Below are positions 4,955-64,000 of a stretch of 64,000 nucleotides of DNA, piece after piece. Position 1 is the stretch's first letter. Each line of letters opens with the position of its first letter. The DNA is from a bacterium. Lineage in GTDB: Bacteria; Myxococcota_A; UBA9042. The stretch is taken from positions 3,857-67,856 of the forward strand of contig JAUIAC010000003.1 of assembly GCA_030425545.1 (NCBI GenBank), in the 5' to 3' direction. The notes below the pieces were generated by a model, which saw only the letters and a list, made by a program, of their open reading frames with translations, was not told where the DNA came from and searched no databases. The position numbers and the translations under genes were made by a program.

Positions 4955-5734
4955 TCAGTCGCTCGCGTTGGGGCCGGCTGCGAGGGCCTCGACGTAGCGC
5001 AGGCGCAGCCGATCCGCCGCGTCGCGCAGGTCTTCGTCCGGGTCCAGGGTCACTGGCGCGAGCGTGTCGATGGTCACGCTGCCGCGGTTCGGCGCGAACT
5101 GCCCCATGGGCCAGATCTTGACGTGATCGTGCAGCACGATCGGCAGAATCGGCGCGCCCGACACGGCCGCCAGGTGAAAGGCGCCGAGCTTGAAGGGGCC
5201 CAGGTTGCCGTCCTCACTGCGGGTCCCCTCCGGCGCGATCAGCAGCTGCAGGCGCTCGGCGTGCATGCGCGCCGCTGCGGCCTGCAGCGACGCGTACGCC
5301 TTCTCGCGGTTGCCGCGTTCGAGGAACACCGAGCCAATCGCCCGGCAGCCCGCCCCGAGCAGCGGCACGTCGTTCATCTCCTGCTTGACCACCAGCACGC
5401 CCCCCTCCGGGAGCAGCGCCGCGCCGGTGAGCACGTCCAGCGTCGAGCCGTGGTTGAACGTGAGCACGCGCGGGGTCCGCTGGCCGAGCGCGGCCTGGGC
5501 TCGGGGCGTGAACACCACGTCGACCCCCGCGATGCGCGACATGGTCGAGCCCCAGGTGCGGACGAAGTGGGGGCCGAGCACCGAGCGCTCCTCCTTGTCG
5601 GCCAAGAGGGCGCGCACCACGATGGTCGGGATGTAGACGGAGGTGAACATCCACCCGGCGACCTGGCGGGTCACCGCCGACACCGCGTTCGCAGGGAGCT
5701 TCGGGGGCTTCGGGAGCTTGGGCAGCGTGGGCAT
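4955..5734 (-). CDS. Lysophospholipid acyltransferase (1-acyl-sn-glycerol-3-phosphate acyltransferase, PlsC/LPLAT family)
   Basis: HX4D-type motif FNHGSTLD and the PEGTRS motif (IAPEGTRS) are present. The 259-aa length is typical. ATG confirmed at 5734. Confidence 0.8.
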   Translation of the reverse strand: MPTLPKLPKPPKLPANAVSAVTRQVAGWMFTSVYIPTIVVRALLADKEERSVLGPHFVRTWGSTMSRIAGVDVVFTPRAQAALGQRTPRVLTFNHGSTLDVLTGAALLPEGGVLVVKQEMNDVPLLGAGCRAIGSVFLERGNREKAYASLQAAAARMHAERLQLLIAPEGTRSEDGNLGPFKLGAFHLAAVSGAPILPIVLHDHVKIWPMGQFAPNRGSVTIDTLAPVTLDPDEDLRDAADRLRLRYVEALAAGPNASD

Positions 5735-5787
5735 CGCGAGGGGTCCTGCAAGGCTGCGGTTGGAGCCGGCGGCGCGGCGCTGTCAAT

Positions 5788-7590
5788 CTAGGCCTCGGCA
5801 GCGGCCAGCACCTCCAGCACCTTGCCGAAGCCGATGGCGGCGCGAATGTCGCCCTTGACCTTGAGCTTGCCGCTCATGAAGGCCGCGGGCCCGTCGAGCT
5901 TGCCGCTGGCCATGTGCAGGAAGTCGGCGTCGGCCATGCGCATGCTGCACACCGCGTCGTCGCTGTCTTGCTGCGTGATGCTGCGCTCGGCCTTGGCGTC
6001 GGGGAGCCGAAAGGTCCACACCTGGGCCTGCTTGCCGGTGACCTCGAAGCGGTAGACCCCCTTCGCCGGCAGCTTCATCTCAGGATCGGCCGCCAAGCGC
6101 GCCGCCGCGGCGTCGAACACCGCCTGCACCGCGCCCTCCGGCAGGACCGGCCCCTCTTCGCTGAGCCCGAGGGCGTTGACCGCGGCCTCGAGCTCGTTGG
6201 CCGACTCCCAGATCATCCGCGTGAAGTCGTCGATGTCCGGCATCACCGCTGGCGACGAGGTCGGGCTGATCGCGAGCACACCGTTGTAGCTGGTGACCAC
6301 GAGCATGAGCCCCATGCCGTCGAGGATCGGCGCTGAGCCCATCTGCGCCAGCAGCTGCGACCCGGCCAGGTAGAGCGGGATCTGGGGGCCCGGCACGTTG
6401 GTGATGACGCAGTTGAACATCGGGCGGTGGTGGTCCGCGAGCTGCGAGCGCGAGTAGGCACGCGCCGCCTGACCCGCGAGCCCGAAGGGCACAAAATCGG
6501 TCGCCTCGATGAGGCGCTTGGCCTTGACCGCGCCCTGGTAGGTCTTGCCCACCGAGGCGTTGCTGTGGATCTGCCGCAGGCGCTCCACCGGGTCGTCGAT
6601 GTCGGTGGCGAGCTGCAGGAACATGGCCGACACCTGGTTGCCCATGGTGTTCTTCTCGGCCTTCGACCGCGTCGACACGGGCACCATGGTCACCAGCGGC
6701 TCGCGGGGCAGCGCCCCCTTGTCGTCGAGGTAGCGGCGCAGCGCACCGGCGCAGATGGCGAGCACCACGTCGTTGACCGTGCAGCCCATGAGCTTCTTCA
6801 GCCGCTTGACCCGGTGCAGCTCCAGCAGGGCCACGTTCCACGACCGGCGCGACGAGATCGGCCGGTTCAGCGGCGTCGGCGGCGCCTGAAAGGGCAGGGT
6901 CGGGGGCGTCTCGGGCGAGGCCTTGGCCAGCGCCGTGGCGCGCCCGACCGCGGCGGCGGCGTCGGCCAGCAGCCGCGGCAGCTTCTTGGGGCGCCGCGCG
7001 AAGCTCAACGCGGTCCGGCTCAGCAGCTCGATGTCCGTGGGGATGGGGGCGATCTGGCGCGGCGGCGGCGGTTCGATCTGGCGCGGCTCCGGGGTCATGT
7101 CGAAGAGCATGCCGACGATGTCGGAGCCGCTCATGCCGTCGATGCAGGCGTGGTGGATCTTGTTGATGACCGCCACCGATCCGGGCGGGATCTGCGGGAT
7201 GTGGTCCAGCCCCTCCACGAAGACCATCTCCCAGAGCGGTCGCGAGCGGTCCAGCGGCTGCGAGAAGATGCGCGAACAGAGCTTGCGCAGCTGCTGCCAG
7301 TCGCCGGGGCGGGGCAGGGCGGTGTGGTGGAGATGCCAGTCGATGTTGAAGTCGGGATCGTCGATCCACAGCGGCTTGTCGAGCCCCATGGGCACGTGAA
7401 CCAGCCGGCGCGTCAGCACCTTGACCAGGTGCATGCGCTCGAGCAGCAGGTCACGGAAGGCGTCGAAGGTGAGCGTGCCCTCCATGATGCTCAGGCCGCC
7501 CACGTGCATCGGCGAGTTGGGCGTCTCGAGGTAGAGGAAGGCGGCGTCGAGACCGGTCATCTCGTGCAGGCCGGGGTGGCTGGGGTCCAT
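5788..7590 (-). CDS. Wax ester synthase/diacylglycerol acyltransferase (WS/DGAT) fused to a C-terminal SCP2 sterol-carrier-like domain
   Basis: Catalytic HHACIDGMSG (HHxxxDG) motif, and the WS_DGAT_C motif NCVITNVPGPQ. The C-terminal ~110 aa (...KGVYRFEVTGK...MSGKLKVKGDIRAAIGF...) match the SCP2 fold. It sits 53 bp upstream of plsC on the same strand. Confidence 0.8.
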   Translation of the reverse strand: MDPSHPGLHEMTGLDAAFLYLETPNSPMHVGGLSIMEGTLTFDAFRDLLLERMHLVKVLTRRLVHVPMGLDKPLWIDDPDFNIDWHLHHTALPRPGDWQQLRKLCSRIFSQPLDRSRPLWEMVFVEGLDHIPQIPPGSVAVINKIHHACIDGMSGSDIVGMLFDMTPEPRQIEPPPPRQIAPIPTDIELLSRTALSFARRPKKLPRLLADAAAAVGRATALAKASPETPPTLPFQAPPTPLNRPISSRRSWNVALLELHRVKRLKKLMGCTVNDVVLAICAGALRRYLDDKGALPREPLVTMVPVSTRSKAEKNTMGNQVSAMFLQLATDIDDPVERLRQIHSNASVGKTYQGAVKAKRLIEATDFVPFGLAGQAARAYSRSQLADHHRPMFNCVITNVPGPQIPLYLAGSQLLAQMGSAPILDGMGLMLVVTSYNGVLAISPTSSPAVMPDIDDFTRMIWESANELEAAVNALGLSEEGPVLPEGAVQAVFDAAAARLAADPEMKLPAKGVYRFEVTGKQAQVWTFRLPDAKAERSITQQDSDDAVCSMRMADADFLHMASGKLDGPAAFMSGKLKVKGDIRAAIGFGKVLEVLAAAEA

Positions 7591-7731
7591 GCTGTGCTCC
7601 TGTTGAGGGGCCAGTGTGATCGAAGGCGGCGTCTGTGTCTGTAGCGAAGGCGGCGCCCCGCCGGTCCGGCCTCGACCCGATCGCGGCGGCCAGGGTCCCA
7701 GCCTCGTCTGCCGCGCCGCGCACGGGGGCGT

Positions 7732-26714: not shown

Positions 26715-29700
26715 TCAGGGACCGACGCAGCCTGGGCCAGCCGTCTTGCTCCACGTGACGCCTGGCAGGGTCAGCTTGAAGCCCTTGATCTGGTCGGTCG
26801 CCACAGCGCCGCTGCCCTCGCTCAGCTCGAACTGCCACGTCCCGACCGGCTCCAGGGTCGTGGGCGGCACGAACGCGGCGCCGTAGCGCATCTCGGGTGA
26901 CCAGCGCAGGGCCGCCAGCTCCGCGTCGAGGGGATGGGTCTTCCCGTCATACTGGTCGCCGAAACGCAGCGGACAGCTGGCCGACCAGCCGCTACCGACG
27001 CCCGAAAAGGAGCGCGCCAGCGCGCCGTCGACAAAGAGCGAGCCTGTGCCGTCGCCATGGGCCTGCAGGGCGAAGTGCTGCCACACACCGGCGCGCCACA
27101 CCACCTTGCTCGGGCTCGCCTTCTCCCCAGCGCCGCCGAGCTTCGACTGGTCCAACCCGGCCGCCCCCACACCCACGCGCCACGCCAGCGAGGGCTTCAT
27201 CGAGGCACAGCCAGCGCCCGTGCCGGGCTCGTCCACCGCGACCAGGGCGCCAAAGCCGGACGTCGGCAGCGCCTTGACCCGCGCCCACCCCTCCAGGGTC
27301 CAGGCGCCGGTGTCGTAGTGCGCGGTGTTCTTGCCGAGGAGGCCCGCGGGCTTGGTCCAGGCCACGCTGGTGCAGTCCGGCGCGACGTTGGGCGCGCAGA
27401 GCACGTTGCACTTCTTGGGCCAGGCGCCGTTGGCCATGCCGTTGTCACAGGCCTCCCACCGGGCCGCCTGGCCGTCGCCACAGGTCGCCGAGCTGGCCAG
27501 GTCGCCGTAGCACTGGTCCGCGATGAAGTCGCCCGCCAGCAGCTTGGTCGCCACGCTGTGGCCGCTGTCGTCGCTGGTCAGCCCGAGCGGGCTGTCGAAG
27601 CGCCACAGACCCCGGGTCGCTGCGTCGGGCAGCAGGCGCCGCCGCGGCGTGAACGACGCGCCGTAGCGCGCGCCGGCGCTGACGCGCACCTCGTCGAGCC
27701 GCCCCGGCAGCCGGTTCGCGGCGATGGGCGTCTCCTTCTTGAACACGCAGCCCTGGCCGGTGCCCTTGGCGCCGCCGCCGAGGAAGAGCACCTCCTTGTC
27801 GATCTGCCAGCCGGGCAGGGCCGCGGGCAGCTGCGCCGACGCCGAGGCCTCCAGCTTGCCGTCGACGTAGACCCGCAGCGGCGCACCCTGCGCGAAGCCA
27901 GCGACCGCGGCCACGTGGTACCAGACGCCCGCCTTGACGGTGGTCTTCGCGAAGAGCGGCGGCAGCGGGAAGCGCACCAGCCCGAAGCGTGTGCCGTTCG
28001 TCGTCTGCGACACCATCAGCGAGAAGATCCCACACGACGCGCCGAGGAGCTCGAAGGTCCCCGTGGTGTCGTCCACCCGCACCCAGGCCTCGAGCGTCAT
28101 CGTGCACGTGGGGCACACCGTGTCGGCGGCCCACTCGGGGAAGCCCGCCGTCTGCATCGCGCCCTGGCCGTTGACGTGGAAGCTCCGCTGCAGCCGGCAC
28201 CCCTCGCACCCGTCACACGCGGCGCCGTTCTTGTCGTCGCAGGTCTCGAGCGCGGTGTCGACCTGCCCGTCGCCGCACACCGCCGCCGCTGCGCTGCGCC
28301 CGAGGCAGCTGTCCTTCCCGAGCAGCGCGCCCTTCAGGGTCAGGTCCAGGCCCTGCGGTCCAGCGTCCTTGGCGTCGCCGTCGAAGCGCCACAGCGCCAC
28401 CGTGGTGGGGTCCGGCGAGGTGGTGCGCGCCGGGACGAAGGCGCCCCCGTGCAGCGCGGCGCGGGCCACGTGTACCTCGTCGATCTGGCCCTTGAACTCG
28501 CCGCCCTTGGCGTCCCAGTAGGTGCGCCCCACGGTCACACCGGCCCCGGGCACGTCGAAGCGCGGCTTGAAGAGCTTGCCACCGCCGGCGGGCAGGCCCC
28601 CGACGTAGAGCCGCACCGTGTCGCCCACGACCACCGCCGCGACGTGCGCCCACTGATTCGCAGGCACGACCTTGGCCTTTCCCCCCACCTTGGCCGCGAT
28701 GAACTCGGGCCCCAGCGGCGACACGTGGCTGAAGAGCAGCTGCCCGCCGCTCAGCGAGAGCGTGAAGGTGCTCGCCCCCAGCGCCTTGCTCGCCTTGGAC
28801 ACGATGGTCAGCTCGGCGAAGACCGTGGTCGGCCGCACCCAGGCCTCCACCGTCAGGTCGCCCACCAGGCCAAAGGGGCCGGCGAGCCCGTCTTTTCCGG
28901 GCGTTGGCGCCGCCACCTGAGCGTAGGCGGCCCCGTCCAAGCTCAGGTTGCCCCGCGGCTGGCACGCCTCGCACCCGTCGCACACCGCGCCGTTGCCGTC
29001 GTCACAAGCCTCGCCCTTGCCCACGTAGCCGTCGCCGCAGGAGGGCACCACGCACTTCTTCGCCACGCAGTGCTTGCCCCCGCCGCAGCTCGCGCCGTCC
29101 TTCACGCCCTCGAACACGCACCCCTTGCTCCCGCAGCTGTCGTCGGTGCACGGGTTGCCGTCGTCGCACACCAGCTTCGTCCCGACGCAGCTGCCGCCCT
29201 TGCAGCCGTCCTGTCCCGTACACGGGTCACCGTCGTCGCACGACTTGCCCACCTCGGGCACCTGCTCGCAGCCACTCGCGGCGTTGCAGCTGTCCTTCGT
29301 GCACACCTTGCCGTCGTCGCAGTCGAGCGCCTTGCCGGCCACGCACTTGCCCGCCTGGCAGGCGTCGCCGGCCGTGCACTTGCTCTGGTCCGCGTCGCAG
29401 GGCTTGCCGTCCTGCGGGCCGCTGACATGGCTGCACGCCCCGGTCTTGGGGTCGCACGCGTCCACCGTACACACCTCGCCGTCGTCGCAGGACTTGCTGG
29501 CGCCCGCCGTGCACAGCCCGTTCTTGCAGCTGTCTCCCACGGTGCAGGCGTCTCCGTCTTTGTCACACGGCGCGATGTTGTTGGCGCTCTGGCAGCCCTT
29601 GCTCGGGTCGCAGCTGTCGTTGGTGCAGGGGTTCTTGTCGTCACAGTCCACCTTGGCGCCGGGCGCGCACACCCCAGCCTTGCAGACGTCGCCGACCGTG

Positions 29701-31208
29701 CAGACGGACCCGTCGGCGTCGCAGGCCTTGTTGTCCTGGGCCGGCACCGAGCCGCACTTGCCCGTCTTCGCGTCGCAGGCCGTCTTGGCGCATGTGGTGT
29801 CCTTGCTGGTGTCGCAGGTCACCACCGACTTCGGGTCGATCTTGCACACGAAGGGGGCCTTGGCCTTGTCGCAGTAGAGCGTCCCGTTGCAGAGGTCACC
29901 GTCTTCCTTCGCGGCGCACTGGGCGTCGGTCGTGCACGCGCACACGTTGCCACCCGGCTTGCAGCCGCCCTTGTCGCACGCGTCGCCGTTGGTGCACGGG
30001 TTGCCGTCTTCACAGGGGCCCGCCTTGGGCGTGTTGGTGCACCCCGCCGTGGTGTCGCTGCCCGGCGCCTTCGGGTCGCACCCGTCGGTGGTGCAGGGCT
30101 CGCTGTCGTCACAGGTGACGCTGACGTCGATCGACAGCCCCACGCACGCGCCGTTGCCGTCGCACAGGTCGTTCGCTGTGCAGGCGTTGCTGTCGTCACA
30201 GGGCTTCTTGTGGGGCGTGTAGACGCAGCCCTTGAGCTTGTCGCACGCGTCGGTCGTGCACGGGTTGGCGTCGTCGCAGGGCACGACCTGGCCCAGGCAG
30301 CCGCCCTTGGCGTCACAGGCGTCGGCCGACGTGCACGCGTCACCGTCGTCGCAGGCCCCCGCCACCGGCGTGTGACTGCACTGCGTCCCACCTTGGATGC
30401 AGGCGTCGGTCGTACACACGTTGTCGTCGTCGCACAGCCCCTCGTCCGTGGCGCCGTTGCAGTCGTTGTCGAGCCCGTCGCAGAGCTCACTCACCGCAGG
30501 TGGTGCGGTGCAGTCCCCCAGCGCGCCAGCGCTCGTGCAGGTGCGGCTGCCGGGGCAGGTCCCCAGCTCGCCGACCGCCTGACACACGGTCGACAGCTTC
30601 AGCGTGGCCGACCGCGGTGAACACGGGCACGCCAGGTCCTTGCGAACACAGGCTCTCCGCGCCTCGCCCGCGTGGGTCTTGCCGTCGTTGCAGACGAAGT
30701 CGCCAGGGCAGTCCGCGTCCACCGCGCAGGTCGACCCACAGAAGCTGCCTTCGGTCGTGCCGTAGCGCATGCAGTACGAGCCGTGGTCGCCCAGGGCCTC
30801 CTGGCACGTGGAGTCGGCGCTGCACGGCGCGCACAGGAAGCCCCACTTGGGCACGCAGAGCTGCACGGCGTCCGCCCCACCGGTGCTCACCGTCTGGCAG
30901 TCGAAGCCGTCGGGACACGCGTCCACGCAGGTCTTGGCGCACTGCTTGCCGGCCGGCGTGTGGATGCACAGGTTGTTGTCGCAGTCGTCCGACGCGTCAC
31001 AGGGGCAGCCGGCGCCTCCCGGGCACAGCGCCGCGGTGTCTGGCGCCCCGGCGTCGTCGCTCGTGGTGTCTGGCGACGTCGTGTCGACCTGCCCCACGTC
31101 CTCGCTCGCGTCGGTGGACACGTCCGTCGCGCCCTGGCCACCGGGGGGCCCCTCGCCGCAGGCCACCAGACACGCACACAACGCCAGGACTCCGAAGCCA
31201 GTTCTCAT
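26715..31208 (-). CDS. Giant secreted Cys-rich lipoprotein (1497 aa) with about 12 CDDGNPCTxDxC-type repeats, a MopE-like metal-binding motif, two myxobacterial Cys-rich (TIGR02232-like) repeats and three LamG/ConA-like domains
   Basis: The lipobox is MRTGFGVLALCACLVACGE. CDGLDNDCNGATDEGLCDDDNVC is a MopE-like putative metal-binding motif (PF11617-like). AVCGDGQVDTALETCDDKNGAACDGCEGC and SCGDGYVGKGEACDDGNGAVCDGCEAC are the myxobacterial repeats. Three ...EAWVR...LYVGG LamG-like segments are present. The opposite-strand ORF 26934..30620 is a shadow. Confidence 0.75.
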   Translation of the reverse strand: MRTGFGVLALCACLVACGEGPPGGQGATDVSTDASEDVGQVDTTSPDTTSDDAGAPDTAALCPGGAGCPCDASDDCDNNLCIHTPAGKQCAKTCVDACPDGFDCQTVSTGGADAVQLCVPKWGFLCAPCSADSTCQEALGDHGSYCMRYGTTEGSFCGSTCAVDADCPGDFVCNDGKTHAGEARRACVRKDLACPCSPRSATLKLSTVCQAVGELGTCPGSRTCTSAGALGDCTAPPAVSELCDGLDNDCNGATDEGLCDDDNVCTTDACIQGGTQCSHTPVAGACDDGDACTSADACDAKGGCLGQVVPCDDANPCTTDACDKLKGCVYTPHKKPCDDSNACTANDLCDGNGACVGLSIDVSVTCDDSEPCTTDGCDPKAPGSDTTAGCTNTPKAGPCEDGNPCTNGDACDKGGCKPGGNVCACTTDAQCAAKEDGDLCNGTLYCDKAKAPFVCKIDPKSVVTCDTSKDTTCAKTACDAKTGKCGSVPAQDNKACDADGSVCTVGDVCKAGVCAPGAKVDCDDKNPCTNDSCDPSKGCQSANNIAPCDKDGDACTVGDSCKNGLCTAGASKSCDDGEVCTVDACDPKTGACSHVSGPQDGKPCDADQSKCTAGDACQAGKCVAGKALDCDDGKVCTKDSCNAASGCEQVPEVGKSCDDGDPCTGQDGCKGGSCVGTKLVCDDGNPCTDDSCGSKGCVFEGVKDGASCGGGKHCVAKKCVVPSCGDGYVGKGEACDDGNGAVCDGCEACQPRGNLSLDGAAYAQVAAPTPGKDGLAGPFGLVGDLTVEAWVRPTTVFAELTIVSKASKALGASTFTLSLSGGQLLFSHVSPLGPEFIAAKVGGKAKVVPANQWAHVAAVVVGDTVRLYVGGLPAGGGKLFKPRFDVPGAGVTVGRTYWDAKGGEFKGQIDEVHVARAALHGGAFVPARTTSPDPTTVALWRFDGDAKDAGPQGLDLTLKGALLGKDSCLGRSAAAAVCGDGQVDTALETCDDKNGAACDGCEGCRLQRSFHVNGQGAMQTAGFPEWAADTVCPTCTMTLEAWVRVDDTTGTFELLGASCGIFSLMVSQTTNGTRFGLVRFPLPPLFAKTTVKAGVWYHVAAVAGFAQGAPLRVYVDGKLEASASAQLPAALPGWQIDKEVLFLGGGAKGTGQGCVFKKETPIAANRLPGRLDEVRVSAGARYGASFTPRRRLLPDAATRGLWRFDSPLGLTSDDSGHSVATKLLAGDFIADQCYGDLASSATCGDGQAARWEACDNGMANGAWPKKCNVLCAPNVAPDCTSVAWTKPAGLLGKNTAHYDTGAWTLEGWARVKALPTSGFGALVAVDEPGTGAGCASMKPSLAWRVGVGAAGLDQSKLGGAGEKASPSKVVWRAGVWQHFALQAHGDGTGSLFVDGALARSFSGVGSGWSASCPLRFGDQYDGKTHPLDAELAALRWSPEMRYGAAFVPPTTLEPVGTWQFELSEGSGAVATDQIKGFKLTLPGVTWSKTAGPGCVGP

Positions 31209-31503
31209 CGATGGGTCCCCTCAGCTTGGCGGCTGCGCGGTCGCGGCGCCGGGCGCCGGCCACGTCATCGTAATTCTGCCTGAAACTGCGTCAAAGTACG
31301 CGCCCGGAGCGGCTTGGCCGGCCACGGGCCCGCGCGACGGGCGCCCGGGAACACGGGGCGAGGTGCTCCAGCTTCAAGCGCGGAGCACCCGCCGGCGCAT
31401 TGGCCGGCCTGCTGGGGGACGCGGCGCGGTTGCGCACAAGCGTCGGACCCGGCCCGCAGGGCAGGGCGTCGGCGAGCGGAGCGTGAGGGCGCTGGGAGAT
31501 CTG

Positions 31504-42123: not shown

Positions 42124-43239
42124 TCAGGCTTTGACCTCGATCAGCGCCGGCGCGTCCGCGGCCTGCACGCGGCCGACCGTCGCTGCGGTGGTCACGCCCT
42201 CCGCTGCGAGCGCGCGCATCAGCGCCGCGTGTCCCTCGGGCGCGATCGCGATGAGCAGCCCGCCGGAGGTCTGCGCGTCGGCGAGGATCAGCTGCTCGAA
42301 GTCCGAGAGTCCGGCCTCGAAGCGACAGTTGGGCGCCGCGTAGGCGAGGTTGCGCTTGCTGCCCCCCGGGCAGGCGCCGGCCTCCGCCAGCTCCCGCACG
42401 CGGGGCAGGAGCGGCACGTCACCCAGCCGCAGCGAGGCCCCCAGGGGCGTCGCGCCGCTCGACGCGCGCAAGACGTTGCCCAGGTGCCCGAGCAGGCCGA
42501 AGCCGGTGACGTCCGTCGCCGCGTGAACGTGGGTGCGCACCTGCGTCATCGCGCGGGCGGCCGCTGCGTTGAGCGCGGTCATGTTGTCCACGGCCGGCTG
42601 CAGCGCCGCGGCGTCGATGACCCCACGCTTGAACGCGGTCGTGAGCACGCCTGTCCCCACCGGCTTGGTCAGCACCAGCAGGTCGCCGTCCTGGGCGCCG
42701 TCGTTGCGCACCACCTCGTCCGGGTGGACCGTCCCGGTGACGAAGAGGCCGAACTTCGGCTCCTTGTCGACGATGCTGTGACCGCCGCTGATGACGATGC
42801 CCACCTCAGCACACACGTCTCCCGCGCCTCGCAGCACCTCTCCCAGCGCGGCGGGGCCTGCGGTGTCCATGGGCCAGGCGACAAAACTCAGCGCGGAGAG
42901 CGGCGTGGCGCCCATGGCGAAGACGTCGGAGAGGGCGTTGGCCGCGGCGATGCGACCGTAGTCGTACGCGTCGTCGACGATGGGGGTGAAGATGTCGACC
43001 GTCTGCACCAGCGCCAGGTCGTCGCGCAGCCGAATCACCGCGGCGTCGTCCCCGGTGTCGAGCCCCACCATCACCCTGGGGTCCTGCGCGCGCGGCAGGT
43101 GTGCGAGGGCGGCGATGAGGTCGACCTGCGCGATCTTGGCCGCACAGCCGGCCGTGGCCGAGAGGCTGGTCAAAGGGACCGCCAGCGCGGGCGGCGCAGC
43201 GGAGGTCTCGGGGGGCAGGCCAGGCGCAGCGGTCGACAT
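42124..43239 (-). CDS. selD: Selenide, water dikinase (selenophosphate synthetase), Cys-type
   Basis: N-terminal TAGCAAK, i.e. Cys rather than Sec in the glycine-rich loop. AIR-synthase-like domains (GLDTGDDAAV, DVTGFGLLGH). Internal ATG at 43239 is preferred. Confidence 0.8.
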   Translation of the reverse strand: MSTAAPGLPPETSAAPPALAVPLTSLSATAGCAAKIAQVDLIAALAHLPRAQDPRVMVGLDTGDDAAVIRLRDDLALVQTVDIFTPIVDDAYDYGRIAAANALSDVFAMGATPLSALSFVAWPMDTAGPAALGEVLRGAGDVCAEVGIVISGGHSIVDKEPKFGLFVTGTVHPDEVVRNDGAQDGDLLVLTKPVGTGVLTTAFKRGVIDAAALQPAVDNMTALNAAAARAMTQVRTHVHAATDVTGFGLLGHLGNVLRASSGATPLGASLRLGDVPLLPRVRELAEAGACPGGSKRNLAYAAPNCRFEAGLSDFEQLILADAQTSGGLLIAIAPEGHAALMRALAAEGVTTAATVGRVQAADAPALIEVKA

Positions 43240-43588
43240 GGGGGGCTCCAAGACACGAGGGCGGGCGGTCGCGAGCCGCGAACGGTGCCGACGCACGTCG
43301 CGCTTGTCGAGGTCCGGGCCACGGGAGCGCCGCGCGGTCGCATGTTTTGCGTACGTGGCGCGTTGCAGCAACAGCCGCCCGCCGCGGGTCCGCTGCGGGC
43401 TCGTTGACGCGGGCATGCGTGCTAGGAGCCTGTAGCGCATTCCGCCTCGGCGGCTTCATCGCGCTGACACATCGCCCTGCGACTCCGCCACGTGCTTGAA
43501 TTGGCTACGGCCAGTCCTGCGCACTCGGGAAGCCACAGGGCTTGGTCATCGCGCGAAGCCCCTCGAGGCTCCAATGCGCTACACACTC

Positions 43589-44786: not shown

Positions 44787-45613
44787 CCTCGCTGCGTCCC
44801 GACCGCACCTGCGCAGAGGCCCGTGGGCTCGCGCTTGGGCTCCGGCGCGCGTGGCGACTGCGCCTGGCTCGCGCCGACCTGAAGCCGTGGCGTCGCCACA
44901 TGGCGACCGCTGGGATCCACCTCGCTGCGTCGCGCACCACCTTCGCGGACCTCTCCGGCGGCCGGCTGCGGGAGGGCGCGGGCGGCCTGCACCTGGTGGT
45001 GCTCTCGCCCGACGTCGAGCTCGCCCGGGCGTGTCTGGCCGAGGAGCTCCGCAACGTCGGGCGGGGGGCCGCCGCCACGTGGGCCGATCTGCGGGACACC
45101 CACGCGACGCACCGTCGCCTCGGGGACGCCTACGGCTACCCTGCGTGCTGCGTCGAGGCCTTCTGCGACGCCCACGCGGAGGCGGTCCTGCAGGGCGACT
45201 CGCTCGGCGACAACGGCCTCGCCATCGCCCGCGCCGCAGCGCGCAGCGCGTCGTTCCACCCGTGGCTGGGCTCCCTGCCCGGGGCCTTCGGTGCCCATGC
45301 GCCCACGCCTCTGCGGCACCTGCCGTGCCGCTTCGACTGCGCTGCGTCCTTGTCCCTCGCCGAGGCCTTGTACGCAGACCTGGCGCGGGTCGATCCACTC
45401 CGGCACCGACGGCTCGCAGCGGGGCTGACCCGCCCGGTGTGGGTCGACCGCCACGGCGTCGCGACCCTGGCGTCAGGGCTCGAGCGAAGCGCGACCCACT
45501 GGTCGGTGAAGCTGCCCTCCGGCGCGTCGGCGCGGTGTCCCGTGCGTCCCCGCGCGGGCGAGGCGCTCCTGCCCACGGTGCTGCCCTTTGCCCCCCGGCA
45601 CTCGCCAGCCTGA
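44783..45613 (+). CDS. Hypothetical protein (ATGA-coupled to the ompA-like gene)
   Basis: Its ATG overlaps the upstream TGA. No recognisable family. It contains GYPACCVEAF. Confidence 0.4.
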   Translation: MTSLRPDRTCAEARGLALGLRRAWRLRLARADLKPWRRHMATAGIHLAASRTTFADLSGGRLREGAGGLHLVVLSPDVELARACLAEELRNVGRGAAATWADLRDTHATHRRLGDAYGYPACCVEAFCDAHAEAVLQGDSLGDNGLAIARAAARSASFHPWLGSLPGAFGAHAPTPLRHLPCRFDCAASLSLAEALYADLARVDPLRHRRLAAGLTRPVWVDRHGVATLASGLERSATHWSVKLPSGASARCPVRPRAGEALLPTVLPFAPRHSPA

Positions 45614-45873
45614 GCCAGGTCCCCGGGCCGCGCGGCGCCGCCCGGGGGACGTCGCGTCCCGGCGCCGGCGGCAGATGACAACCTCGCGCCCTGACCGTAG
45701 CCTCGTGGGGTCCCTCGCGTGCGGCTCGTCCGCGCTCGCCCACACGACCTTCGCGCACCGTCACCCTGCGCGCGCACCACCACGGGTTGCCCGTCGCGCC
45801 GCCCGCTTGCGTCGCCACGCGGCGCGCCCCTGCCCCCGCCCTTGTCGGCGGTCGGTTCGGCCCAGGAGTCTCC

Positions 45874-47862
45874 ATGAAGCTGCAGCCCGTTGGCGTCGAC
45901 CTGCTCCCCAAGGTGGTCAAGGCCATGTCGCAGAGCGCGCTCTTTCGCGGCATCCCGGAGCAACAGCTGGCCGGGCCCGCGCAGCAGGCGGTGCTGGCCC
46001 ACTACGCGCCCGACGAGGTGATGATGCGCGCCGGCGACCGCGCGGACGGGTTCAGCGTCCTGCTGAACGGCGCCGCGGTGCGCAGCATGGCCGTGCCCGC
46101 CACCGACACCATGGTCGAGGTCGACCGCATCGCCGCCATGGAGACCTTCGGCGAGATCGACATGCTGCTCGGTCAGGCGCGGCGCTCCACCGTCACCGCG
46201 GCGTCGCAGTCCCTCGCGCTCACGTTCGACGGCGGCGCTGTGCAGCACCTCTTCGAGCGGGTGCCCTCCTTCGGCATGCAGCTCGGCCGCGTGCTCGCGC
46301 AGCGGGTGCGCAAGGCTGAGCCGGAGGTGCCCCTCCGCTTCTTCGATCTGCGTCGGGCGCCACCGAGCAAGGAGGTGGTCGAGCTGCTCCCGGGCGCGTT
46401 CATCGCGCGGCAGCGGGTGCTGCCCGTCCAGAGCGAGGGCAACAAGCTGGTGGTGGGCTTCGTCGACCCGCTCACGCGGCGCACCTTCGAGGCGATCCGG
46501 AAGCAGCTGCCCGGCATGGAGCTGTCGCCGGTGCGCATCGATCCCGAGGACTTTCGCAAGCTGGCCACGGCCCGAGGGGTCGCCCTCGACCTCGACACGA
46601 GCGGGGGCGGCGGGGCAGGGCGCCGGGCCTTTGCCCAGACCGGGTCGGCGCCGATCCCGAGCCGCGCCACGGGCGGCGTGGCCATGCCGCCGAGCATGAC
46701 CGGCGTCCACGCGCCAAGCCTGGACGGCCCCGCCGGCGCCGCTGGGACTGGCGCCGGGGTCAACCGGCGCTTTGGGCCGCGGGTCGACAACAACCCCCGC
46801 CTGGACGTCATGCTCAAGCGCATGGTGGCCGAGGGCGCGTCCGACCTCCACCTGAGCGCTGGGCACCGGCCGCGGTGGCGCATCGACGGCGAGATCCACG
46901 AGATCTCCGAGGCCAAGGTCCTGGGGCCAGACACGGTCATGGAGCTCTTCGAGCCGGTCATGGCCGACCGCAGCATCAAGGAGTTCGAGGGCAACGACGT
47001 CGACTTCGCCTACGCCATCCCCAACGTCGCCCGCTTCCGCGTCAACCTCTTCGCGGACCGCCTCGGCATCGGCGCGGTGCTCCGCCAGATCCCGGACAAG
47101 ATCCTGACCTTCGAGCAGCTCGGCCTCCCGGAAGCCGTGCGCAAGATGTGTGACCACCCCAAGGGGATGATCCTGGTCACCGGCCCCACGGGCTCGGGCA
47201 AGTCGACCACGCTCGCGGCGATGATGGACTACATCAACAAGACGCGACGGACCCACATCATCACGCTCGAAGACCCCATCGAGTTCGTCCACAAGAGCCG
47301 CAAGTCCCTGGTCAACCAGCGCGAGGTGGGGGAACACACGGCCAGCTTCAAGCGCGCGCTCAAGGCCGCCCTGCGCGAGGATCCGGACATCGTGCTGGTG
47401 GGCGAGATGCGCGACATCACCACCGTCGGCCTCGCCCTGGAGACCGCGAACACCGGTCACCTGGTCTTTGGCACGCTGCACACGGCTACGGCCATCTCGA
47501 CGGTGGACCGCATCATCGACCTCTTCCCGCACGCGCAGCAGTCCCAGATCCGCGCGACGGTGGCCGACTGTCTCAAGGGGGTGATCTCGCAGACCCTGTG
47601 CCGCAAGAAGGGGGGCGGGCGCATCGCCGCGCTGGAGATCCTGGTGGGCTCGGCGGCGATCTCGAACCTGATCCGAGAGGGTAAGAACCACCAGATCGCC
47701 AACATTCAGATGACGGCGAAAAAGCAGGGCAATCAGATGTTGAACGAGGAGCTGGAGAAGCTCGTGCTCGCCGCCAAGGTCGAGTACGAAGAGGCCATCG
47801 GCAAGTCGCTGGACAAGCCCGACCTGGCCAAGCGCTTCGGGCGTGAGTACTTCGAGTCGTAG
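45874..47862 (+). CDS. PilT/PilU-family type IV pilus retraction ATPase with N-terminal cNMP-binding-like and GspE_N (T2SSE_N/MshEN-like) domains
   Basis: Walker A is GPTGSGKST. Other ATPase motifs are LEDPIE, the Asp box VGEMRD and the His box GHLVFGTLHT. AIRNLIREGK is PilT-like. The N-terminal ~130 aa resemble a cyclic-nucleotide-binding fold (FGEIDML...). A GspE_N-like segment is LPGAFIARQRVLPVQSEGNKLVVGFVDP. The ATG at 45874 has a GGAG Shine-Dalgarno sequence. Confidence 0.85.
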   Translation: MKLQPVGVDLLPKVVKAMSQSALFRGIPEQQLAGPAQQAVLAHYAPDEVMMRAGDRADGFSVLLNGAAVRSMAVPATDTMVEVDRIAAMETFGEIDMLLGQARRSTVTAASQSLALTFDGGAVQHLFERVPSFGMQLGRVLAQRVRKAEPEVPLRFFDLRRAPPSKEVVELLPGAFIARQRVLPVQSEGNKLVVGFVDPLTRRTFEAIRKQLPGMELSPVRIDPEDFRKLATARGVALDLDTSGGGGAGRRAFAQTGSAPIPSRATGGVAMPPSMTGVHAPSLDGPAGAAGTGAGVNRRFGPRVDNNPRLDVMLKRMVAEGASDLHLSAGHRPRWRIDGEIHEISEAKVLGPDTVMELFEPVMADRSIKEFEGNDVDFAYAIPNVARFRVNLFADRLGIGAVLRQIPDKILTFEQLGLPEAVRKMCDHPKGMILVTGPTGSGKSTTLAAMMDYINKTRRTHIITLEDPIEFVHKSRKSLVNQREVGEHTASFKRALKAALREDPDIVLVGEMRDITTVGLALETANTGHLVFGTLHTATAISTVDRIIDLFPHAQQSQIRATVADCLKGVISQTLCRKKGGGRIAALEILVGSAAISNLIREGKNHQIANIQMTAKKQGNQMLNEELEKLVLAAKVEYEEAIGKSLDKPDLAKRFGREYFES

Positions 47863-60874: not shown

Positions 60875-62167
60875 ATGTCCACTCACCCCGTGTCCGCGCG
60901 CCTCTTCACCCAGGCTCAGCAGGTGACCCCCGGCGGGGTCCACAGCCCTGTGCGCGCTTTTGGTTCCGTGCCCGGCGACCCGGTGTTCTTCGCCAGCGCG
61001 TCTGGGAGCCAGGCCACCGACGCCGACGGTCGGACCTACGTCGACCTGTGCATGTCCTGGGGCCCGCTGATCCTCGGTCATGCAGATCCGGCCGTGGTCC
61101 GCGCGGTGCAAGAGGCGGCGCCCAAGGGGCTCAGCTACGGTGCGTGCCACGCCGGCGAGGTGGCGCTCGCAGAGCTGATCGTCTCCGCCTTCCCCAGCTT
61201 CGATCAGTGCCGCTTCGTGAGCTCGGGCACCGAGGCGGTGATGACCGCCCTGCGCCTTGCGCGGGGCGCGACCGGCCGCTCGAAGGTGATCAAGTTCGAG
61301 GGCGGCTACCACGGCCACAGCGACGCGCTCTTGGTGAAGGCGGGCAGCGGGCTCATCACCGCCGCCGACCCGGACTCCGAGCCGTCCAGCGCCGGTGTTC
61401 CGGCCGAGGTCGCCGCCACCACGCTGCAGGTCCCCTTTGGAGACTTGGACGCTGTGACGCGGCTCTTCGAGCGCGTCGGCCACGACATCGCCGCGGTCAT
61501 CCTCGAGCCCATGCCCGCCAACAACGGCTTGCTCGTTCAGACCCCAGGGTTCCTCGCCGGGCTGCGCGCGCTCACCGCCGAGCACGGCGCGCTGCTCATC
61601 TTTGACGAGGTCATCTCTGGCTTCCGCACCGGCTGGGGTGGCTACAGCGCCGGGGTGACCCCGGACCTGGTGACGCTCGGCAAGGTCATCGGCGGCGGCA
61701 TGCCGGTGGGCGCCGTGGTCGGGCCGCGGGCGACCATGGAGCACCTGGCGCCGACCGGGCCGGTCTACCAGGCGGGCACGCTCAGCGGGAACCCGGTGTC
61801 CATGGCCGCCGGACACGCGACCCTCTCGCAGCTCGCCGACGGCGCTGTCTACGCCCGCCTCGAGGCCTTGGGCGCTCGCCTTCAGGCGCGCATCGAGGGC
61901 GGACGGACTCGGAGCTGGCCGCAGGTGCAGCGCGTGGGTTCCATCGTGTGGCTCTACCTCGACGAGGGTGCCCTCCCGACCCGCGCCGACACCATCAGCC
62001 AGACCCACGTGACGCGCTTCAACCACCTCCACGGGCAGCTCCTCGACGCTGGCTTCTACGTCCCACCTTCGGCCTATGAGGTGCTCTTCCTCTCCGCTGC
62101 GCACACCGACGCCGAGGTCGACGCCCTGGCGGACGCCGTGCTCAGCGCCGTCGCCGGGTTGGACTGA
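60875..62167 (+). CDS. hemL: Glutamate-1-semialdehyde 2,1-aminomutase
   Basis: 430-aa class-III aminotransferase with the GGVHSPVRAF and PLP-Lys (DLVTLGKVIGGG) regions. Confidence 0.9.
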   Translation: MSTHPVSARLFTQAQQVTPGGVHSPVRAFGSVPGDPVFFASASGSQATDADGRTYVDLCMSWGPLILGHADPAVVRAVQEAAPKGLSYGACHAGEVALAELIVSAFPSFDQCRFVSSGTEAVMTALRLARGATGRSKVIKFEGGYHGHSDALLVKAGSGLITAADPDSEPSSAGVPAEVAATTLQVPFGDLDAVTRLFERVGHDIAAVILEPMPANNGLLVQTPGFLAGLRALTAEHGALLIFDEVISGFRTGWGGYSAGVTPDLVTLGKVIGGGMPVGAVVGPRATMEHLAPTGPVYQAGTLSGNPVSMAAGHATLSQLADGAVYARLEALGARLQARIEGGRTRSWPQVQRVGSIVWLYLDEGALPTRADTISQTHVTRFNHLHGQLLDAGFYVPPSAYEVLFLSAAHTDAEVDALADAVLSAVAGLD

Positions 62168-62169
62168 CC

Positions 62170-63288
62170 ATGGCCAGGGCACGCCGGGACCGCGCGACCG
62201 TCATCTTCACGGCCGCGATCGTCGTGCTCATCGTGCTCAGCCTGTGGTGGATGGTCTTCTTTCACCGCGCCATCACCAATGAAAACCGCATGATGCGGCA
62301 GAGTCTGGACGACGCCGCCCACGTCCACGCGCTCCGCCTCCGCGTCGCTCGCACCGTGCCCGAGCCCGGCGTGTTCGCGCCGGACAAGCGCTTCGAGGTG
62401 CGGCAGGTGACCGAGGTGGCCCCCGGTGACGCCGTCATCCGCGCCCCCTGGGTGCTGCGGCCGCAGCGGGCGACCCTGCGCCGGCTCGACGACCACTTTG
62501 GCGGTCGTCGGCGGATGTTGCTGGGTGAAGGTGTGCTGCTCACCGGTCTGCTGCTCAGCGTGGTGGCGATGCTCTACCGGCTGGTGCAGGCAGAGCGGCG
62601 GTTTCGCGACGAGATGTCGGAGTTCCTGTCGCGGGTGACGCACGAGATGAAGACGCCGCTCGCGGGCATCAAGGCGGTGCTGCAGGTGGTCGAGTCGCAG
62701 CGCGTCCCAGCCGAGCAGGTGCCGGGGCTCGCCAGTCGGGCGCTCCGAGAGGTCGAGCGCGAACAGCAGCTGATCCAGAATCTGCTGCTGGCGCAGCGCA
62801 TGCGTCAGCCCGGTGCGTCGCTGGTGCGGGAGTCCGTCGACGTCACCGCGCTGCTGGCGGAGGTGCTGCAGCACCGCCGAGAGCTGCCGGGCGGCGTCAC
62901 GTTCACCCTGTCGGCAGCGGAGGCGGTGGTCGCGCGCGCCGATCTGAGCGCGCTGCGATCGATCGTCGACAACCTCCTCGACAACGCCGCCAAGTACGGC
63001 GCGGAGGAGGTCGAGGTGCAGGTGACCGAGCGCGACGCTGTGGCGTGCATCGACGTCAAGGACGACGGCATGGGCTTCGCTGAGACCGCGGCCGACGAGC
63101 TCTTCGCCCCCTTCCGGCGGACCGTGGGCGCGGCGGGTGGCAAGCAGGGCACCGGTCTGGGGCTCCACATCTCGCGCACCCTGGCGCGGCGCATGGGCGG
63201 CGACGTCACCGCGGTGAGTCCGGGCGAAGGGCAGGGCGCGGTCTTCTCGGTCACCCTCCCCCTTGCGGATCAACGCGCAAGCCTTTAG
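62170..63288 (+). CDS. Sensor histidine kinase (membrane-anchored; HisKA + HATPase_c)
   Basis: N-terminal TM segment, H-box SRVTHEMKTPL, and N, G1 and G2 boxes (DNLLDNAAKYG, DDGMGF, GTGLGL). Confidence 0.8.
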   Translation: MARARRDRATVIFTAAIVVLIVLSLWWMVFFHRAITNENRMMRQSLDDAAHVHALRLRVARTVPEPGVFAPDKRFEVRQVTEVAPGDAVIRAPWVLRPQRATLRRLDDHFGGRRRMLLGEGVLLTGLLLSVVAMLYRLVQAERRFRDEMSEFLSRVTHEMKTPLAGIKAVLQVVESQRVPAEQVPGLASRALREVEREQQLIQNLLLAQRMRQPGASLVRESVDVTALLAEVLQHRRELPGGVTFTLSAAEAVVARADLSALRSIVDNLLDNAAKYGAEEVEVQVTERDAVACIDVKDDGMGFAETAADELFAPFRRTVGAAGGKQGTGLGLHISRTLARRMGGDVTAVSPGEGQGAVFSVTLPLADQRASL

Positions 63289-63378
63289 ACCCCAGGCCAC
63301 ACGGCGCGCGTGTTTGGTGCGTCTGCTCCGCCACTCGGGCGTCACCGCCCGCCGCGCGTCACCTCGGAGAGCCGCAGC

Positions 63379-64000
63379 ATGAGCCGCATCCTGCTGGTGG
63401 AGGACGACGACCTCATCGGCACCATGGTGCGCCTTGTCCTCGAGCAAGAGGGCTACGGGGTCGACTGGCAGACCTCCGGCGAGTCCGGTCTGGCCCGCTG
63501 CGTCGGCGCGGACGCGCAGCGCTTCGACGCGATCCTCCTCGACATCACGCTCCCTGGCATGAGTGGGCTCGACGTGGCTGGCGCGCTCCGGCGTCACGGG
63601 GTGGGCACCCCGATCCTGATGCTGACGTCGCAGGACCAGACCGACAGCAAGGTCGACGCCTTCGAGCGCGGCGCCGACGACTACGTGTGCAAGCCCTTCG
63701 ACATGCCCGAGCTGCTCGCCCGACTCCGCGCGCAGATCCGGCGCAGCCAAGGGCGGCTCGAGTTGGCCAGCGATCGCAACACGGCCTTTGGCGCCGCCCG
63801 TGTCGACATCGACGGGCGGCGGCTCTGGGACCGCCACGGCGACGAGGTCACGCTCAGCGACAAGGAGCTCGATCTGGCCTTGCTCTTCGCCCGCCACCCG
63901 GGCCGCGTGCTGACGCGCGCGGACATCCTCGACGAGGTCTGGGGCATGGACGCCATGCCGACGGAGCGCACGGTCGACAACTTCATCGTCCGCTTGCGGC
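63379..64000 (+). CDS. OmpR/PhoB-family response regulator. The 3' end lies outside the window.
   Basis: Receiver-domain Asp pocket (LLVEDDD, ILLDITLPGMSG, K at KPFD). A winged-helix start (LSDKELDLALLFARHPGRVLTRADILDEVWG). Confidence 0.85.
   Translation, partial: MSRILLVEDDDLIGTMVRLVLEQEGYGVDWQTSGESGLARCVGADAQRFDAILLDITLPGMSGLDVAGALRRHGVGTPILMLTSQDQTDSKVDAFERGADDYVCKPFDMPELLARLRAQIRRSQGRLELASDRNTAFGAARVDIDGRRLWDRHGDEVTLSDKELDLALLFARHPGRVLTRADILDEVWGMDAMPTERTVDNFIVRLR

Follow-up and report, generated by a model that had tools for sequence, protein, structure and literature searches.

The protein considered here is encoded in a 64,000-nucleotide stretch of bacterial DNA (the window; NCBI GenBank assembly GCA_030425545.1, contig JAUIAC010000003.1, GTDB lineage Myxococcota_A, UBA9042) and joins a cyclic-nucleotide-binding (CNB) domain, an MshEN_C sub-domain and a PilT-class motor ATPase in a single chain of 662 amino acids. 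This domain architecture is unstudied and fairly widespread. On sequence grounds we propose that the protein is an accessory hexameric ATPase of the PilT class and that cyclic AMP (cAMP) or cyclic GMP (cGMP) controls its activity or its docking, a proposal to which we give an even chance. It is plausible that the protein is separate from the housekeeping pilT. An earlier note on this DNA had recognized both the motor and a sensor-like extension in front of it, and all three domain families that it named for a search (PF00027, PF05157 and PF00437) pass their curated cut-offs.

By every sequence test run, the protein belongs to the PilT/PilU family and is not a PilB or GspE. The Pfam family T2SSE (PF00437) matches residues 310-578 with 169.9 bits, and the NCBIfam model pilT_fam (TIGR01420) scores 447.6 bits against a cut-off of 319.1, aligning model positions 2-340 of 343 with residues 310-647. 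Scores for PilB (TIGR02538; 162 bits, cut-off 675.65) and GspE (TIGR02533; 153 bits, cut-off 630.25) fall far below threshold, as does that for the NCBIfam DotB family, and the protein sequence contains no CxxC pairs of the kind that make up the tetracysteine zinc motif of PilB and GspE. In a search of the Protein Data Bank (PDB) the best solved relative is Pseudomonas aeruginosa PilT (3jvu, 351 bits); Aquifex PilT and Geobacter PilT4 are also among the closest, and PilU scores lower (230 bits). Foldseek likewise places PilT4 and PilT at the top for the core and PilU below them, with 44-47% identity to P. aeruginosa PilT in its alignments. This fold search, made with the full-length model, retrieved the cores of PilT, PilU, DotB and GspE alone and did not inform on the N-terminus.

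Judged by its conserved residues, the motor is catalytically intact and of PilT type. Besides the Walker A motif it carries an Asp box (EDPIE), a Walker B motif (DIVLVGEMRD) and a His box (TGHLVFGTLHT), which together with the TIGR01420 score bears out the earlier description of a bona fide PilT/PilU motor. Conservation was counted over 53 full-length family members: the Walker A Lys and Ser, the Glu, Asp and Glu of the Asp box, the Walker B Glu and Asp and the first His of the His box are kept in 53/53, and the second His (H536) in 52/53. The PilT signature, given as AIRNLIREGK in the earlier note, in fact reads AISNLIREGK, and the family consensus at this site is A-[VI]-[SA]-N-L-I-R-E-G-K. 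A further stretch of the core, (K/R)PRWR(I/V)DG(E/D), is a signature of the family; P. aeruginosa PilT has LPPMIRVDGD at the same place.

The N-terminal domain adopts a predicted CNB fold. Pfam cNMP_binding (PF00027) matches residues 43-129 with 36.8 bits (cut-off 27.5), and a separate model of residues 1-235 has a mean predicted local distance difference test (pLDDT) score of 91.3, with the CNB part at about 90-97. Foldseek matched this part to Mycobacterium tuberculosis CRP, GlxR and the CNB-B domains of PKG and PKA RIalpha (E values 1e-10 to 3.5e-12; root-mean-square deviation about 2-3 Å over 120-135 residues), so the cyclic-nucleotide-binding-like fold that had been anticipated for this region holds. 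G66 and G93 are present in 53/53 members, E94 in 43/53 (81%) with Asp in 6 more (11%), and R103 in 46/53 (87%); by the retention of G93, E94 and R103 across these relatives, the phosphate-binding cassette is under selection. Most clades show a canonical cassette, GE(M/I)GLLL··PR(S/T)A(T/S)V·A. Mean pairwise identity is 0.67 for the motor, 0.33 for the CNB domain and 0.37 for MshEN_C; on these alignment values the sensor part evolves faster than the motor yet stays constrained.

The second domain matches Pfam MshEN (PF05157) over residues 154-230 (46333-46563) with 47.7 bits (cut-off 23.1; profile positions 3-79 of 90), and its model shows a beta-beta-alpha-beta-alpha arrangement at a pLDDT of about 87-91. 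Since CNB matches swamped the fold search of the N-terminal model, this domain was examined by profile against the PDB. Residues 150-235 matched the GSPII domains of Thermus thermophilus PilF, PilB N-termini (7LKO/7LKM, Geobacter and Myxococcus xanthus) and Vibrio cholerae MshE (E values 3e-8 to 0.04), and every match started at target residue ~60-80, past the four-helix bundle. In MshE this bundle, MshEN_N (residues 1-64), carries two 24-residue motifs and binds cyclic di-GMP (c-di-GMP), and MshEN_C is an α/β sub-domain that contributes Asp108 alone to the c-di-GMP site (Wang et al., 2016; PMC5013675). Because the matches to MshE, PilB and PilF begin only at residue ~60-80, the window protein has MshEN_C only; a four-helix MshEN_N sub-domain is absent, and residues 1-148 form the CNB fold instead. 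The CNB domain, which ends in a long C-helix (residues 131-148), stands exactly where MshEN_N would be, as if one sensor had been swapped for another, a CNB domain for the c-di-GMP-binding bundle. The GspE N1/MshEN-like domain of the earlier note is in this sense real for its MshEN_C half and missing for the half that binds c-di-GMP. Within MshEN_C the motif LLP..R.R..P...G.VD is invariant or near-invariant, with P173 and G195 in 53/53 members and R179, P184 and V197 in at least 50/53.

The AlphaFold model of the full-length protein, for which 19 sequences were aligned, has two N-terminal domains predicted with confidence (pLDDT about 90 and 87), next a disordered stretch and then the PilT core; residues 239-294 have a pLDDT below 30. 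Linker length ranges from 12 to 70 residues among family members, the window protein having the longest. The N-terminal extension put at about 300 residues is thus present, at ~305, and ~70 of these residues are disordered linker.

The fusion recurs in many other genomes. A word-indexed search found more than 120 full-length homologue clusters (48-83% identity) with the same three Pfam domains, all of them derived from metagenomes or metagenome-assembled genomes (MAGs) and publicly annotated simply as 'PilT'. A scan with the core signature [KR]PRWR[IV]DG[ED], covering one genome for each of 185,579 species, returned 65 genuine loci. They lie mostly in Myxococcota ('Deltaproteobacteria') MAGs, one of them labelled Bradymonadia, and a coherent group among them carries Acidobacteriota labels (Vicinamibacteria, Holophagae, Thermoanaerobaculia); implausible taxon labels (e.g. 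Enterobacteriaceae, Klebsiella, Victivallis) were disregarded. The Acidobacteriota-labelled loci L015, L022, L037, L038 and L057 are intact, full-length and cluster by PilT-core identity, L030, L058 and L061 bear the same label, and the fusion seems to span the two phyla Myxococcota and Acidobacteriota. No cultured named species, Myxococcus included, matched in the signature scan, a result bounded by the search pattern. As all the members found belong to uncultured lineages and none to Myxococcus, a role in S-motility cannot be assumed.

In local hidden Markov model searches nearly every signature locus carried CNB, MshEN_C and PilT in one open reading frame (ORF), the exceptions being loci cut off at contig ends, a few ORFs that are split or frameshifted, L029 (without an MshEN_C match) and L030 (PilT core only). 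By these matches, the three-module fusion is stable across the family. An exhaustive profile search with the N-terminal module over 1.84 billion representatives gave 551 proteins at E ≤ 1e-30, a total that takes in unrelated proteins with multiple CNB repeats. Among the matches listed, those covering the whole module in a single stretch had it at residues ~1-235 (one at 31-259), and the complete proteins measured about 600-700 amino acids; odd-length matches, checked by Pfam, had the same architecture in truncated or slightly altered form. The core-only protein of L030 (L030:7686-9227) bears the signature without a detectable CNB or MshEN_C domain and comes from the same MAG as the full-form L037; it may have arisen as a paralogue lacking the module or through misassembly.

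How a nucleotide signal could reach the motor is suggested by the better-studied relatives of MshEN_C. c-di-GMP exerts its effect on MshE by way of the sub-domain that directly precedes MshEN_C (PMC5013675). The N-termini of EpsE and XpsE, which contain the GSPII domain, bind the PilM-like proteins EpsL and XpsL, and the GSPII-C domain of PilF is needed to relay stimulation by PilMN to the ATPase (PMC6325625). In the window family the CNB C-helix leads straight into MshEN_C, which is itself tethered to the motor by the disordered linker. A ligand in the CNB pocket would shift the B and C helices, as it does in CRP, PKA and PKG, and this shift would reposition MshEN_C. The change in MshEN_C might then alter docking on, or stimulation by, a PilM/GspL-type platform, or alter assembly of the ring. 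A cyclic mononucleotide signal could in this way decide whether the PilT paralogue engages the type IV pilus (T4P) machine, or a related one, or hydrolyses ATP. The outcome would be direct post-translational control of retraction by cyclic mononucleotides, parallel to the c-di-GMP control of MshE, PilB and PilF.

Several observations weigh against cyclic-nucleotide control of a pilus motor. The full-length model is of moderate quality (pLDDT 73; predicted template modelling score 0.35), and the geometry between the domains is not established by it. The docking role suggested for MshEN_C is drawn by analogy from extension ATPases, not from PilT. Among the ORFs annotated in the 64-kb window there is no gene for a pilus, a secretion system, a PilM-like protein or a cyclase, and clustering of flanking ORFs across more than 60 loci found no machine component or cyclase conserved beside the gene. 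The pocket itself raises doubts as well. The window's clade has a derived cassette, GE·(D/E)·L(L/M)··PRR·(S/T)V, which in the window protein reads FGEIDMLLGQARRSTVTA: G93, E94 and R103 are present, with Asp96 in place of Gly or Ala and Arg104 in place of Ser, Thr or Ala, and given these two residues the identity of the ligand, or its binding, may differ in this clade. About 13% of the relatives lack R103, and two Acidobacteriota members (L022 and L057) lack both the Glu and the Arg of the cassette; by their sequences these two are probably ligand-blind. CNB folds are moreover able to bind other ligands or none.

The pocket residues bear most directly on the best-surviving alternative, namely that the CNB domain of the family has no ligand, or one that is not a cyclic nucleotide, and serves as a structural, oligomerization or partner module, and that the PilT motor is constitutively or differently regulated. 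We think this improbable, though far from negligible. It gains from the non-canonical D96 and R104, from the relatives that have lost the Arg or both Glu and Arg, from the modest PF00027 score and from the use of other ligands by CNB folds of the CRP/FNR superfamily. Against it stand the G93-E94 pair and R103, retained in the window protein and most of the family, and a CNB domain that remains constrained, with 33% mean pairwise identity and invariant glycines. The two unusual positions also covary: 26 members combine a small residue at 96 with Ser, Thr, Ala or Gly at 104, 19 combine an acidic with a basic residue and 0 a small with a basic one, a pattern confounded by phylogeny. With the same reservation, the co-occurrence of D/E96 and R/K104 has the look of a linked substitution, perhaps two charges paired on the cassette, and not of decay.

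A second alternative, which we rate as unlikely, concerns the machine: the protein would power or regulate a different one, for instance a type II secretion system (T2SS)-like or another type-IV-filament system, or act as a non-motor competitor of PilB and PilT for the platform, and would not be a pilus retraction motor. This would fit with the absence of T4P genes from the vicinity in the window and related loci, and with MshEN_C being otherwise typical of extension or secretion ATPases. The core argues in the other direction, as it lies well above the PilT/PilU cut-off and far below those of PilB, GspE and DotB, keeps the PilT signature AI(S/A)NLIREGK and lacks the CxxC..CxxC zinc motif of the PilB-type relatives. 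The missing linkage also counts for less than it might, pilT genes being often unlinked to pilus clusters.

The same alternative draws on the occurrence of the sensor cassette on PilB/GspE-type ATPases. Two uncharacterized metagenomic proteins from the search of representatives, P0224 (886 amino acids) and P0245 (905 amino acids), have two tandem CNB-MshEN_C units before a PilB/GspE-type core, which matches the full T2SSE model at ~360 bits, has PilB and GspE as its best NCBIfam families at about 400-417 bits and carries a CxxC…CxxC zinc motif. Their cassette aligns to the window N-terminus as one unit of CNB domain, junction and MshEN_C (22-24% identity; E values 3e-15 and 5e-13). Since the cassette is homologous on PilT and on PilB/GspE cores, it is used on both retraction-type and extension/secretion-type motors. 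Both proteins are low-GC-like in composition, and the context found for P0224 is one 3-kb contig. They differ from the window protein in that the cassette is duplicated and sits on an extension/secretion-type core with a zinc motif.

Studied paralogues in Myxococcota count in favour of this alternative too. M. xanthus has additional PilT-class ATPases with auxiliary or conditional roles, MXAN_0415, MXAN_1995/PilU, MXAN_6705 and MXAN_6706, and their contribution to motility varies widely (PMC13584747). The window protein resembles them in being an additional PilT-class ATPase of a myxococcotal genome. No CNB or MshEN domain has been reported in them, and the long N-terminus of MXAN_6705 is described as disordered (PMC13584747). 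Orthology to one of these studied paralogues was considered and rejected, no Myxococcus sequence having matched the family signature as far as tested.

A third possibility, at which the earlier note had hinted, is a c-di-GMP-gated motor whose MshEN-like domain binds c-di-GMP in the manner of MshE, PilB or PilF. PF05157 is named 'MshEN domain' and scores above its cut-off here, and the domain has relatives in PilB, PilF and MshE that form part of c-di-GMP receptors. The strict binding motif RLGxx(L/V/I)(L/V/I)xxG(L/V/I)(L/V/I)xxxxLxxxLxxQ, for which that note had proposed a check, is however found neither in the protein nor in any of the six reading frames of the window; the closest 24-mer agrees at 6 of the 11 specified positions, and it falls within the ATPase. 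The relaxed motif (Wang et al., 2016) occurs in 0/53 full-length family members. With the motifs missing and a CNB domain in place of the binding bundle, two defining features of the c-di-GMP-binding MshEN class are lacking, the protein falls outside that class as judged from its residues, and we reject c-di-GMP sensing through this domain as very improbable. Because PF05157 covers only MshEN_C in this protein, a hit to the family alone says nothing about c-di-GMP binding and can mislead annotators.

The gene model was also questioned. The mechanical ORF (45787-47862, forward strand, 691 codons) opens at a TTG; translation from the ATG at 45874 gives the 662-residue product. The N-terminus MK·QPV is identical in 18/18 aligned homologues, for which reason we take this ATG, as the earlier note had done, to be the start in use; an AGGAG lies upstream of it. 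The G+C content at third codon positions is 0.93 over the whole ORF, typical of coding sequence in the window (G+C ~72%), and an identical protein product is recorded on a metagenome-derived Logan contig. Scans found no promoter-like, terminator-like or Rfam elements around the gene. The earlier note had allowed for an N-terminus without a match to cNMP or T2SSE_N folds and for an unused ATG that would reduce the product to the ATPase alone; the domain matches and the start evidence speak against both. That the architecture is an annotation artefact, with an internal start as the sole origin of the product and some 300 upstream codons untranslated, has Met residues at positions 313 and 317, close to the start of the PilT core, in its favour, and we reject it as scarcely credible in view of 235 N-terminal residues that are conserved, confidently folded and matched by two curated families, the shared MK.QPV start, the AGGAG before the ATG, coding-like third positions throughout and the recurrence of the three-module layout in about 60 independent loci.

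The proposal of a PilT-class motor under direct cAMP or cGMP control gains perspective from known systems. The core matches PilT (TIGR01420; P. aeruginosa 3JVU/3JVV, Geobacter PilT4 6OJX) over its full length, with all catalytic motifs and AI(R/S)NLIRE. Canonical PilT, in contrast, has about 345-370 residues and no N-terminal sensor, whereas the window protein adds ~305 residues of CNB domain, MshEN_C and linker; the family also departs from P. aeruginosa PilT in its (K/R)PRWR(I/V)DG(E/D) signature. As in MshE (5HTL), PilB (7LKM/7LKO) and PilF (6F8L), MshEN_C precedes a secretion-superfamily ATPase, separated from it by a flexible linker, and directly follows a sub-domain of a second-messenger-binding type, predicted here to be the CNB domain. 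Unlike those proteins, the window protein lacks MshEN_N and both c-di-GMP motifs, and its motor is PilT-class and not an extension ATPase. The CNB domain shares its fold and the Gly-Glu...Arg pattern of its cassette with CRP/GlxR, PKA RIalpha and PKG. In the mycobacterial acetyltransferase Pat (Rv0998/MSMEG_5458; 4AVA, 4ORF) a single N-terminal CNB domain is likewise fused to an enzyme, presumably for allosteric control. What sets the window protein apart from CRP, PKA, PKG and Pat is its output, a hexameric-type motor ATPase reached through the MshEN_C adaptor, and a cassette with Asp96 and Arg104.

Known second-messenger control of T4P and T2SS motors is either transcriptional, by cAMP with Vfr or CRP, or exerted through c-di-GMP receptors (MshEN; FimX with PilZ). 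In the literature searched we found no description of a CNB domain on a PilT, PilB or GspE (T4P/T2SS) ATPase. If the proposal is true, a PilT motor with its own cyclic mononucleotide sensor would add a direct post-translational cAMP/cGMP input to retraction, and the MshEN_C adaptor would be shown able to carry different sensors. We speculate, tentatively and at somewhat less than even odds, that the family represents the first type IV filament motor to be gated directly by a cyclic mononucleotide, through a swap of the bundle for a CNB domain that retained MshEN_C, and that the cassette is a portable input module on PilT and PilB/GspE with which some bacteria steer extension and retraction by cAMP or cGMP instead of, or alongside, c-di-GMP. 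The family would make a simple test system, in which a single soluble protein offers one ligand pocket and an ATPase read-out, and it is restricted to uncultured Myxococcota and Acidobacteriota, groups about whose behaviour on surfaces little is known.

Table 1. Features of the CNB-MshEN_C-PilT gene and its upstream neighbour (positions in the window).
Feature	Residues	Position	Strand	Basis
CNB-MshEN_C-PilT gene, complete	662 aa	45874..47862 (incl. stop)	+	ORF and translation
Shine-Dalgarno-like AGGAG		45864..45868	+	read from sequence; 5 nt before ATG 45874
CNB-fold domain: beta-barrel and B/C helices	1-148	45874..46317	+	PF00027, models, Foldseek
Phosphate-binding cassette FGEIDMLLGQARRSTVTA	92-109	46147..46200	+	family alignment
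MshEN_C / GSPII-type alpha/beta sub-domain	154-235	46333..46578	+	PF05157, profile vs PDB
Gly/Ala/Pro/Ser-rich disordered linker	~236-304	46579..46785	+	low pLDDT
PilT-class ATPase core: N-terminal PAS-like and RecA-like C-terminal domain	305-650	46786..47823	+	TIGR01420, PDB, Foldseek
Walker A GPTGSGKST	437-445	47182..47208	+	motif read
PilT signature AISNLIREGK	595-604	47656..47685	+	one-residue variant (R to S) of AIRNLIRE
Cys-motif orphan gene	237-276 aa across loci	44900..45613	+	directly upstream, co-directional; mechanical ORF from TTG 44783

The window is syntenic with the locus of a 67%-identical relative, L003. Both share the order PP2C phosphatase, two M16 peptidases, aspS, OmpA-domain protein, Cys-motif protein and CNB-PilT gene, followed on the opposite strand by gcvH, gcvT, folD, cysE, cysK and a phosphorylase. 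A selD-like gene of the AIR-synthase family (42124-43455, reverse strand; AIRS and AIRS_C) separates aspS from the OmpA-domain gene in the window and is absent from L003. Across the family, recurrent neighbours are the housekeeping genes aspS, gcvH, gcvT and folD in one clade; elsewhere the neighbouring proteins are unrelated or lack annotation.

Among co-directional neighbours the Cys-motif gene alone is conserved; it stands upstream in 16 loci from both sub-lineages of the window's clade, at 40-270 nt from the CNB-PilT start in 12/16. Its product has invariant G(Y/F)PxCC and PC(R/S)FDC motifs and no Pfam family (DUF483 appears only at E 0.09), and its 16 detectable relatives are all hypothetical proteins of Myxococcales MAGs. 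The protein may be a metal- or redox-binding partner. The derived D96/R104 cassette and the Cys-motif neighbour occur in the same clade; there, the pocket with its covarying Asp96 and Arg104, together with the linked Cys-motif protein, could be a sign of a modified ligand or of one more partner. A 273-residue protein encoded upstream in Archangium was considered as a homologue of the Cys-motif protein and discarded, as the two are not homologous.

Other proteins with cyclic mononucleotide (cNMP) domains lie within a few kb of the CNB-PilT gene at L018 and L035, and also at L021, L034, L037 and L062. L018:5987-7243 (reverse strand) encodes a tandem-CNB protein and L035:11675-13009 (forward strand) a CNB-EAL phosphodiesterase; such neighbours hint at local cNMP signalling and at a possible cross-link from cNMP to c-di-GMP.

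Elsewhere in the 64 kb, no tRNA genes and no Rfam families at gathering score were detected, including upstream of gcvT-gcvH, where a glycine riboswitch might be expected. A reverse-strand gene (26715-31220) encodes a 1501-residue protein with three Laminin_G_3 domains, Dictyostelium-type CTDC cysteine repeats and DUF4215, which looks like a large secreted or cell-surface repeat protein. At 5788-7731 (reverse strand) the catalytic and C-terminal domains of WS_DGAT are fused to a C-terminal SCP2 sterol-carrier domain, and this wax-ester synthase/diacylglycerol acyltransferase-SCP2 gene adjoins an acyltransferase gene at 4955-5782. At the 3' end (62080-63999, forward strand) a histidine kinase (HisKA and HATPase_c) is followed by an OmpR-type response regulator that runs out of the window.

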